Part shown: positions 25,396 to 38,545 of the stretch, piece by piece | Position numbering within the stretch: the stretch's first letter is position 1 | Layout of the letters: every line of letters starts with the position of its first letter | From: a virus | IMG/VR virus record: IMGVR_UViG_3300045988_009872 | Reading direction: 5' to 3' (one strand) | Length of the DNA stretch: 41,918 nucleotides | The notes under the pieces: model-generated | Told to the model about the DNA's origin: nothing | The model's input: only the letters and a program-made list of their open reading frames with translations | The model's database searches: none | Made by a program: the position numbers and the translations under genes

Positions 25396-25960
25396 TCATC
25401 ACCACCTCGCACTTTTATTTGCTACCAGCCCCCGCCCCTTGGCCTTACATAGCAGTCTTTACCCGCCCCGAGGGGCACATCTGGTGCGGCATTGCAGTCC
25501 TGCCCTGCTTTAGCGCTTCAGGGAAAGTCCCCGTCACTCGCTGTGGTCTCCCCTTACGGGGCACCTATGCCGTATATCTCCGCAACGAGCCGGTCGGCGC
25601 TCCGGCATCTCCAACAGCATGAGCATTTGCGTCCTCACGTCCGGGCGGAAGCTGCCTGTTCTGCCCTTCGTTGCGGTGCTGCCGTCTAAAACTGCCATCA
25701 CCATGCGCAATCACGGTGACGTGCTGGAACTCCGGTAGCGTAGTTTGTGGGCATGTCCCCGCTGGGCCACATCGTCGAGAGGTGCGCGGGGTCCTGTGCC
25801 GCATGAGAGGCGCGACCTCTCGGCCCTGATCGTGGGCTGCATCGTGCGTGCGGCAAATCGCGGGGGGGCGGTGTGAAAAGATAAAAAGCACCGCGCCCCG
25901 CTATGGCGCAGGAGGCTGAACGCCATAAATGAGAGAACCGCAAAGGCTTTTACACCTCTG
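25396..25960 (-). ncRNA. long GC-rich structured 5' leader / candidate ncRNA upstream of terS
   Basis: About 565 nt with no credible ORF. All three minus frames are open with Arg/Pro-rich translations. Stable hairpins lie at 25860-25901, 25903-25926 and 25550-25561 (GUAA tetraloop). Four GGCAG repeats are present. Confidence 0.5.
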
Positions 25961-25967
25961 CGATTCT

Positions 25968-25976
25968 ATTATCTCA
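25968..25976 (-). promoter_or_regulatory. candidate late promoter (extended -10, TGaGATAAT)
   Basis: The minus strand reads TGAGATAAT with a poor -35. This fits an activator-dependent late promoter downstream of the RinA-like gene. Confidence 0.35.
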
Positions 25977-26004
25977 TAAGCAAATGGCTTTTTAAGGCCA
26001 ACCT

Positions 26005-26316
26005 TTAATCATCAAGCAGCCCGTAATTCCGCGCGACGCACTTGATGAAATCCGTATGCCATCGTCTCGCCGTCCGGTCGGAACAGTTAACCGCCATCGC
26101 CGCACCTTCGAGTGTATGGGTCTTGTCCCAGAACACAAGGCGGATAAATTTCAAGCGCTCTTCGCCGTCTTTCATTGGCCTTGTTTCGCTCACCGCTTTT
26201 CGCACAGCGTTGTTTTCTAACAAAGCCACTCCATGCAACTCCTGCTCTCGATCTGGGTCGTAGCGGCGGATAATGGCTTTTACATAGCCCCACCAACTAT
26301 ACCGAGGTTTACTCAT
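26005..26316 (-). CDS. RinA-like late transcriptional activator (sigma region-4-like HTH)
   Basis: The C-terminus LKFIRLVFWDKTHTLEGAAMAVNCSDRTARRWHTDFIKCVA resembles RinA/ArpU-type activators. It is the last gene before the packaging module. Confidence 0.6.
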   Translation of the reverse strand: MSKPRYSWWGYVKAIIRRYDPDREQELHGVALLENNAVRKAVSETRPMKDGEERLKFIRLVFWDKTHTLEGAAMAVNCSDRTARRWHTDFIKCVARNYGLLDD

Positions 26317-27934: not shown

Positions 27935-28662
<728 letters not shown>

Positions 28663-28675
<13 letters not shown>

Positions 28676-38170: not shown

Positions 38171-38545
38171 AGCCCTCTTTGGGCAACTTCAAAGGAGGTG
38201 GTTTTCGTGACCAACCTTTTGATTTTGCCTGTTCCCTTCCTGCCGGGTCGCAACAGCGGTGCCAAAGCGCGTTAAACTGGCTAAATGTAGCAACTGATAC
38301 GGCGGAGCACTCAGTGAAGAGGTTAAAACTCACGGTGATATGCCAGTAATCATATCCCACCGTATCGGGTACTCCCGATTGCTTACCAGCGAGAAGGCAA
38401 TGCGCAGAACCAAAACTGCGAAAGTGGTAAGGCTCCAGAAGAACTTGTAGCACCATTGCAAGCGGCGAAAGCCTGCACGGAGTAAAGGGTAAACAAATTT
38501 GGACATTGGCCGGTGGGAATGGTGCTCCCACCGGTCTTATGTTTT
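38171..38545 (+). ncRNA. candidate ~375-nt structured RNA in the cI/cro intergenic region
   Basis: Promoter TTGACT (38136-38141) -17- TATACT (38159-38164). Terminator hairpin 38508-38536 followed by a T-rich tract. GAAA tetraloop hairpins at 38416-38427 and 38464-38473. Perfect hairpins at 38337-38356 and 38364-38379. Only a 22-codon ORF (38207-38275) follows an SD that is buried in a hairpin. Confidence 0.5.

Follow-up and report, generated by a model that had tools for sequence, protein, structure and literature searches.

Interchangeable small structured RNA modules, two of them cloverleaf-shaped, in the spacer ahead of terS in a gut prophage

The window analysed here is the whole of a 41,918-nucleotide (nt) stretch of viral DNA (IMG/VR record IMGVR_UViG_3300045988_009872), and the subject of this analysis is the 609-bp spacer (25396-26004) of this gut prophage which separates a regulator-like open reading frame (ORF) of 103 amino acids (aa) (26005-26316, minus strand) from terS, the small terminase gene, after which comes terL. 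The spacer has a GC content of 0.62-0.65 against about 0.52 in its flanks. It is made of interchangeable modules with two constant boundary elements, module L at the 5' end and module B directly before the ribosome-binding site, and a variable cargo between them, which in this phage consists of a cloverleaf named TLS-A with hairpin H, a bulged hairpin (module s) with a skipping-rope RNA, and a second cloverleaf named M2. The features of the region, in the order of transcription, are as follows.

26005-26316, minus: regulator-like gene of 103 aa (ACT), immediately preceding the spacer; phrog_36 'transcriptional regulator', E 7e-7
25968-25995, minus: promoter-like site from a consensus scan, TTAAAA, 16 nt, TG-A-GATAAT (extended -10)
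25860-25963, minus: module L, three conserved hairpins, H1 (25938-25963), H2 (25902-25927) and H3 (25860-25901), from folding and relatives
25797-25855, minus: TLS-A, a 59-nt cloverleaf; fold z -3.33, 51 distinct copies
25757-25791, minus: module H, hairpin CCCCGC...GCGGGG with the junction motif GGGGACAT at its end and compensatory changes
25678-25739, minus: module s, a bulged hairpin whose outer stem is GCUACCG/CGGCAGC and whose inner stem is GUCACCGUG/CAUGGUGAU, from the alignment of 12 distinct copies
25581-25675, minus: skipping-rope RNA (Rfam RF02924), 45.2 bits against a gathering score of 36.7, E 1e-7, model positions 1-80 of 80
25482-25573, minus: M2, a 92-nt cloverleaf; fold z -2.83, 90 distinct copies
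25412-25476, minus: module B, terminal element, 137 distinct copies
25393-25408, minus: terS ribosome-binding site GAGGUGGUG (25400-25408) and GTG start (25393-25395), from the sequence and the ORF call
25024-25395, minus: terS, small terminase subunit and first late gene; Pfam Terminase_2, E 2e-23; phrog_51, E 1e-31

Three minus-strand ORFs of 108, 81 and 71 aa overlap one another in three frames of the spacer. None of them had a match when Pfam and PHROGs were searched, and the alignments of relatives carry indels of 1-4 nt in the spacer, that is, of non-triplet length; protein coding was consequently ruled out. No tRNA gene was called by ARAGORN over the window, and a search of 25200-26200 with Rfam gave no tRNA even at E <= 10, skipping-rope being the sole family matched in the spacer. 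GOLLD, ROOL, raiA, introns, ribozymes and riboswitches were unmatched, both in the window at the gathering threshold and in 25200-26200 at E <= 10. An earlier note on this DNA had described the region as a non-coding leader, structured on the minus strand behind a candidate promoter, and this description stands, so that a transcribed leader is plausible. No cultured or annotated phage with the region was found, only two unannotated fecal-virome records.

Conserved structure in the modules

The spacer was compared with about 400 related viral loci overall, TerS-anchored searches contributing 27 genomic and 80 viral loci; single loci are cited below by numbers such as L028, which are not to be confused with module L. 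Folding of the whole leader (568 nt) gave -239 kcal/mol with a z-score of -1.53, 8 of 100 shuffled sequences being equally good, and the plus strand gave a z-score of -0.80; the region as a whole, described earlier as hairpin-dense, is thus not so beyond chance. Only L (z -4.64), TLS-A (z -3.33, folded as 63 nt, 25795-25857) and M2 (z -2.83, folded as 100 nt, 25478-25577) were more stable than their shuffles. Since this holds for three modules only and the whole leader folds no better than shuffled sequences, the evidence for structure is comparative and not thermodynamic. In M2, TLS-A, L and B, the substitutions that leave pairing intact through G-U do so on the minus strand alone.

M2 has a closing stem (A)CGGCAU/AUGCCG(C), followed by ACCA (25482-25485), and the arms GGUGCCCC-GUAA-GGGGAGACC, AGCG[..GGGG-ACUUU-CCCU..]CGCU and GCAG-GGCAGGA-CUGC. 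Pairing is kept in 98.6% of cells. Double-sided changes affect six pairs, where shuffling yields 0.7 (0 of 500), a control which ignores the relatedness of the copies, and in some copies the hairpin of arm 2 has been swapped wholesale with the fold kept. More than 117 IMG/VR loci carry M2, with both flanks variable. In 72 of the 90 copies its 7-bp closing stem is followed by NCCA and the module is preceded by ..ATAT, two features shared by the genuine tRNA genes of these islands. M2 combines a four-way junction, a 7-bp closing stem, an unpaired base with CCA and tRNA-gene-like flanks. It is unmatched in Rfam. Directly 3' of M2 in L031 and L066, an element of 124-134 nt (ACCACACAAGCGGGCGAGG...GGTGTGGTACCA) was observed, whose closing stem is followed by ACCA and which is a candidate for a third structured RNA with a CCA end in these islands.

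TLS-A consists of a 7-bp closing stem UGCCGCA/UGCGGCA around the hairpins GCA-CGA-UGC, GCCC-ACGAUCA-GGGC and GAGAGG-UCGCG-CCUCUC (3, 4 and 6 bp). Its pairing is kept in 99.1% of cells, and 27 cells are changed on both sides compared with 5.0 in the same kind of shuffles (0 of 500), all of them in the 6-bp arm. By pattern scan, it was located at more than 114 IMG/VR loci; its core stands alone in other phages, and CCA follows it in 6 of the 51 copies. The 7-bp stem, unpaired base, CCA and flanks seen with M2 are present in TLS-A in part only, and it is likewise unmatched in Rfam. Downstream of it, module H shows compensatory double changes at three pairs, in L064 and L078. Its GGGGACAT motif precedes tRNAs and M2 in other architectures, and H is found without TLS-A before tRNA-like genes or M2 in L040, L042, L044, L072 and L083.

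Module s and the skipping-rope RNA are inseparable, occurring together in all 12 distinct copies, and the change of CCGUG/CAUGG to CUGCG/CGCGG in L341 is an example of compensation in s. The skipping-rope copy of the window agrees with RF02924 over the full model, with a closing stem and three hairpins, and compensatory changes are found in relatives of its subtype: the closing stem CGCAACG/CGUUGCG is doubly changed to CGCAGUG/CACUGCG, and the hairpin of the insert from GUGAG/CUCAU to GCGAG/CUCGC in L124, L148 and L160. Relatives of this subtype also score above the Rfam threshold (L124, 45.7 bits; L341, 49.2 bits). The copy differs from the family as a divergent subtype with two non-standard pairs in the first hairpin, a 28-nt insert hairpin and a constant extra bulged hairpin at the 5' side; it covers only 95 of the 609 bp, and M2 begins 7 nt on, with no terminator at the 3' side. 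Skipping-rope RNA was described by Weinberg et al. (2017) as probably having a sophisticated function and usually a 3' terminator (PMC5737381). It was also linked there to a nearby-encoded protein domain, said to be related to DUF3800-associated genes (PMC5737381). DUF3800 had no Pfam match at E <= 1e-3 in the 20 early-region proteins scanned.

Module L lies directly past the promoter-like site. Its hairpins H1, H2 and H3, of which H3 has a 12-bp interrupted stem and a U-rich loop, were recovered both by RNAalifold and on folding relatives singly, and none of 200 shuffled sequences folded as well. Every variation in the stems of L is one-sided, with the pairing kept through G-U on the minus strand only. 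The module is unlike any Rfam family, and it occurs without TLS-A in L050 and L079. The site TGAGATAAT (25968-25976), formerly proposed as an extended -10 late promoter, was picked up again in the consensus scan, as a promoter-like extended -10 whose -35 is weak. Conservation in relatives begins at this -10, and the approximately 25 nt upstream of it exist in two versions, which track the regulator gene (the 103-aa ACT or a 72-aa XRE-type HTH). The 103-aa ORF has no Pfam family at threshold; it matches the RinA family TIGR01636 below the threshold (E 2.5e-4, 21.2 bits against a cut-off of 31.9), and it is on this match that the label 'RinA-type' is based. The 72-aa XRE-type HTH gene (HTH_3, E 1e-11) stands in the place of the 103-aa regulator in L066, L070, L071 and others, followed, just before the -10, by a perfect palindrome, ACTCACTTATAAGTGAGT, which looks operator-like.

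Module B contains the hairpins GCCCCUCGGGGC (25465-25476) and CUGCUA..GGCC..GGCU..UGGUAG (25422-25455) and two GGGGCGGG repeats. It was present in all 60 terS-anchored relatives, one of its stem pairs being changed from C-G to U-A in 14 of the 137 distinct copies, and the module stops 7-24 nt short of the start codon of whatever gene is first. Outside the TerS-anchored set the genes following it encode a 143-aa protein (52 loci), a ParB-like nuclease (39), the TerS type of this phage (27), a phrog_606 TerS (19) and phrog_872 (9). M2 and TLS-A showed the same spread of first late genes, at least five of them unrelated. Because B precedes unrelated first late genes, these results suggest a generic 5'-untranslated-region element of the first late gene and argue against recognition specific to TerS. 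Inserts of 170-310 nt were seen between B and terS in L038, L051, L070 and others, with a short Lys/Arg-rich ORF behind an AGGAGG site in L038 and a long polypyrimidine/polypurine tract in L051 and L070.

Taken together, nearly all the hairpins listed in the earlier note were found to be present and conserved. The U-rich-loop stem at 25860-25901 and the hairpin at 25902-25927 correspond to H3 and H2, the GAGAGG/CCUCUC stem to an arm of TLS-A, the CCCCGC/GCGGGG stem to module H and CCCC-GUAA-GGGG to an arm of M2; the stem given there as 8 bp (UCACCGUG/CAUGGUGA) is real and kept in relatives. The alternative pairing of the CCCC with a downstream ACGGGG was not upheld, as the consensus puts those G's with the CCCU of another arm of M2. 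The four GGCAG repeats exist, two of them in the first hairpin of the skipping-rope RNA and one as the 3' strand of the outer stem of module s.

Exchange of modules and tRNA genes in the slot before terS

BLAST alignments of the spacer with its relatives break at fixed points, which separate L/TLS-A/H, s with skipping-rope, M2, and B. The block 25985-25753 was recovered in 24 distinct copies, the block 25752-25578, which holds the skipping-rope RNA, in few loci, the block from about 25582 to 25477 in many loci without the skipping-rope block, and the block 25476-25396 in nearly all relatives. Across the 60 terS-anchored loci, where the architecture of the window reads 'ACT L A H s S M B terS', arrangements such as 'ACT L A H tGln B terS', 'L tMet B terS', 'tGln tTrp B terS' and 'L A H M .. 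B terS' were found. B is always present and last, and L is first whenever present, the islands of many relatives being without it.

Upstream of terS, tRNA genes (Gln, Trp, Thr, Met, Ile and others) were called by ARAGORN in about half of the relatives, one of them beginning 3 nt past module H (L028). The Rfam tRNA model gave 17 matches in 20 representative loci, and no Rfam family besides tRNA was matched in this slot of 20 relatives. Aberrant tRNA-like genes also occupy the slot in sister phages, alone or mixed with modules. One kind, of 77 nt and with an oversized D-arm, is called by ARAGORN as 'tRNA-Trp (cca)' in L038, L042-L044, L059, L060, L072, L079, L085, L087 and L089; the score with the Rfam tRNA model being below gathering, these calls were not accepted as true tRNAs and were treated as aberrant. 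Another, of 72 nt, is present in L040, L043, L047, L054, L058, L064 (2517-2585), L073, L083 and L085, and keeps an ordinary acceptor stem, D-arm, T-arm and ACCA end, with a loop containing the Shine-Dalgarno-like AGGAGGU in place of the anticodon arm. It scores 45-55 bits with the Rfam tRNA model, and ARAGORN either skips it or calls it tRNA-???.

Canonical skipping-rope members, recovered with a degenerate pattern and confirmed with Rfam, were found in unrelated phages inside large tRNA arrays. In two such arrays, from unrelated phages and with at least 10 tRNA genes, the skipping-rope RNA lies directly beside ROOL (L375, 3757-4439, 249.5 bits) or drum (L349, 6259-6456, 75 bits). About 7 of some 50 skipping-rope contexts selected by pattern, not all of them confirmed with Rfam, have tRNAs within 700 nt. 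ROOL and GOLLD, whose functions are unknown, are 'often near tRNA islands' of phages (PMC12286853). Because skipping-rope, ROOL and drum share tRNA arrays elsewhere, the spacer of the window can be regarded as a small, tRNA-free version of a known niche. To this niche the earlier suggestion of an ornate RNA of the GOLLD/ROOL kind had rightly pointed. It resembles the phage tRNA islands with GOLLD, ROOL and drum in that its slot holds tRNA genes in relatives together with structured non-coding RNAs, and differs from them in having no tRNA, in the small size of its RNAs (59-95 nt) and in its position inside the leader of the packaging operon between L and B. As a separate observation, the skipping-rope RNA of L344 (5261-5338 and flanks, 57.2 bits) is apparently nested in a tRNA scaffold, with acceptor strands GGCGCAA/TTGCGCC, then GCCA, and a canonical T-arm GCTGGTTCGATTCCAGC. 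In L393, a tRNA array near a skipping-rope RNA includes a tRNA with anticodon CTA, labelled Pyl by ARAGORN and of the amber-suppressor type, as in recoded phages.

A probable array of small RNA genes in the late-operon leader

The reading favoured here, with a probability of about 0.68, is that the late (packaging) operon has in this spacer its promoter-proximal leader, which at the same time houses a row of small structured RNA genes, a cassette array of the tRNA-island type. The array architecture in itself is considered likely, any specific function much less so. The tRNA-shaped modules are probably cut out by tRNA-processing enzymes. The array would be transcribed, together with terS, from the promoter-like site under the adjacent regulator; the tRNA-shaped modules would be freed by host enzymes, RNase P acting at the 5' end and trimming at the 3' end down to the CCA; the remaining terS mRNA would begin at or near the hairpins of B, and the freed RNAs might then act in trans.

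Cutting of tRNA-like structures by tRNA-processing enzymes is known from stable RNAs C and D of the T4 tRNA cluster and from mascRNA. The cloverleaves of the spacer have in common with tRNAs and such RNAs the four-way junction and, for M2, the 7-bp stem, the unpaired base, CCA and the ..ATAT flank, whereas M2 and TLS-A have no D- or T-loop sequences and no anticodon-loop signature, and single nucleotides link their arms. Processing of the tRNA type is therefore suggested mainly by the NCCA end and ..ATAT flank of M2; recognition by RNase P is an inference, since the cloverleaves lack D- and T-loop sequences and are uncalled as tRNA. As for the control of the operon, staphylococcal phages have a RinA-type late activator whose promoter lies immediately ahead of terS. 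The order of a small regulator gene, a promoter-like site and terS, and the weak RinA-family match, are the same here; the match falls short of the cut-off, the promoter-like site is separated from terS by about 570 nt of small-RNA modules, and in relatives the regulator is replaced by the 72-aa XRE-type HTH gene with its own palindrome.

Several results weigh against this reading. The leader as a whole does not fold beyond its shuffles, and H (z -0.70), s (z -1.74), skipping-rope and B (z -0.20) are singly non-significant by fold energy. The copies of M2 and TLS-A are closely related (85-91% mean column identity), hence the few double-sided changes, and the shuffle control mentioned above does not account for this. 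Neither cloverleaf has the D- and T-loop sequences of tRNA or is called as tRNA by ARAGORN or Rfam, the M2 of the window has an A.C mismatch at the first closing pair, and its TLS-A is without a CCA end. No terminator-like site was called after 25581, where one would be typical for skipping-rope RNA (PMC5737381). The promoter is a match to the consensus only and remains a candidate, and one helix of the alignment pairs the -10 region with downstream sequence, which, if real, implies read-through from upstream.

Other explanations of the region were weighed in the light of the same evidence. The one which survives best, and is nevertheless improbable, is that the region, in full or in L at least, acts in cis as a leader of the put type, enabling RNA polymerase to pass terminators throughout the 25-kb late operon. 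Processive antitermination in phage HK022 is brought about by put RNAs, which consist of two stem-loops just downstream of a promoter, and L likewise places stable, conserved hairpins (z -4.64) just past the promoter-like site, ahead of a long operon, as a constant boundary element of the array. The likeness is one of position and stability: L has three hairpins instead of two, has no similarity to any Rfam family, and is absent from the islands of many relatives. The internal terminators formerly proposed at 19953-20023 were not called, and the late operon as a whole has no excess of terminator-like sites, 19 being found against 25.1 expected from shuffles. A put-like role of L would be compatible with the cargo model and does not compete with it; taken by itself, it leaves most of the spacer, the cargo and B, unexplained.

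It is far less probable that the leader is a riboswitch-like attenuator in which a terminator, opposed by the antiterminator H2/H3, gates the packaging genes. A terminator-like hairpin (CUGCGCC/GGCGCGG) with a U-run was indeed called at 25911-25891; it overlaps H2 and H3 and is the minimum-energy fold of the transcript truncated at the U-run, in the copy of the window only. The truncated transcript of most relatives folds into H2/H3 instead, the 3' arm of the terminator varies without compensation while H2 and H3 are kept, and no riboswitch of Rfam was matched. A conserved terminator/antiterminator switch was consequently rejected.

The possibility that repeats and GC-rich palindromes of the region are protein-binding sites in DNA, recognised by TerS (pac), and not RNA structures, was also judged very unlikely. 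The region does lie directly upstream of terS, and B with its two GGGGCGGG repeats is present in all relatives having this TerS. B, M2 and TLS-A, on the other hand, precede phrog_51 and phrog_606 TerS, the ParB-like nuclease and others (at least five unrelated first late genes), without tracking the specificity of TerS, the cargo modules are dispensable in many relatives, and substitutions that keep the pairing by way of G-U on a single strand fit RNA and not duplex DNA. A TerS-specific pac site, which had been among the roles suggested earlier, was thus rejected for these three modules, their sequences not following the TerS type.

Equally little credence is given to the cloverleaves being functionless, as decaying tRNA pseudogenes or recombination scars in a tRNA island. 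Such an origin would agree with the tRNAs and aberrant tRNA-like genes held by the slot in relatives and with the ..ATAT flank and NCCA end that modules share with tRNA genes. Against decay, M2 (90 copies) and TLS-A (51) keep 98.6-99.1% of their pairing and have invariant loops in spite of varying flanks and contexts, and both the compensatory changes and the whole-hairpin swap in arm 2 of M2 preserve the fold. Hardly any room is left for one large ornate RNA of the GOLLD or ROOL kind spanning about 565 nt: the length, GC-richness, multi-stem junctions and niche (skipping-rope adjoins ROOL or drum in tRNA arrays) are those of such RNAs, but neither family was matched, the whole-region fold is no better than chance on either strand, and the modules occur independently and in other orders in relatives, so that a single long structured RNA was rejected.

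That RNAs without an assigned function (GOLLD, ROOL, drum and skipping-rope) reside in phage tRNA islands was already known; the present locus adds a compact island set within the leader of the packaging operon, flanked by conserved boundary elements and with its cargo freely swapped among related phages. It also adds two widespread structured RNAs, M2 and TLS-A, unmatched by Rfam 15, each at more than 110 IMG/VR loci and with tRNA-gene flanks. Skipping-rope RNA is now placed in the same cargo class as tRNAs, which narrows the hypotheses on its function. Natural variants such as 'L A H tGln B' and 'L A H s S M B' are ready comparisons for the contribution of each RNA, and long 'empty' spacers before terS in gut phages deserve scans for RNA genes during annotation. 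A wider proposal, which is speculative and held as doubtful, is that the segment from L to B is a small-RNA expression cassette in the late-operon leader, shared horizontally by many gut Firmicutes phages, and that M2, TLS-A and the aberrant tRNA-like genes are new families of tRNA mimics which would be matured by the tRNA machinery and act on tRNA-directed processes of the host, perhaps by luring away defence nucleases that cleave tRNA or by modulating translation at a late stage of infection.

Other observations in the window

Outside the spacer, a 246-aa ORF at 27935-28675 (minus strand), without a Pfam match, carries long Gly-Ser-Gly-Tyr-Gly-Asp repeats, the local GC content rising to 0.77. 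In the early/lysogeny region, a FuFi-1 RNA (RF02986) was matched at 38382-38540 on the plus strand with 122.8 bits against a gathering score of 59.6, and an integrase gene is located at 40705-41718.

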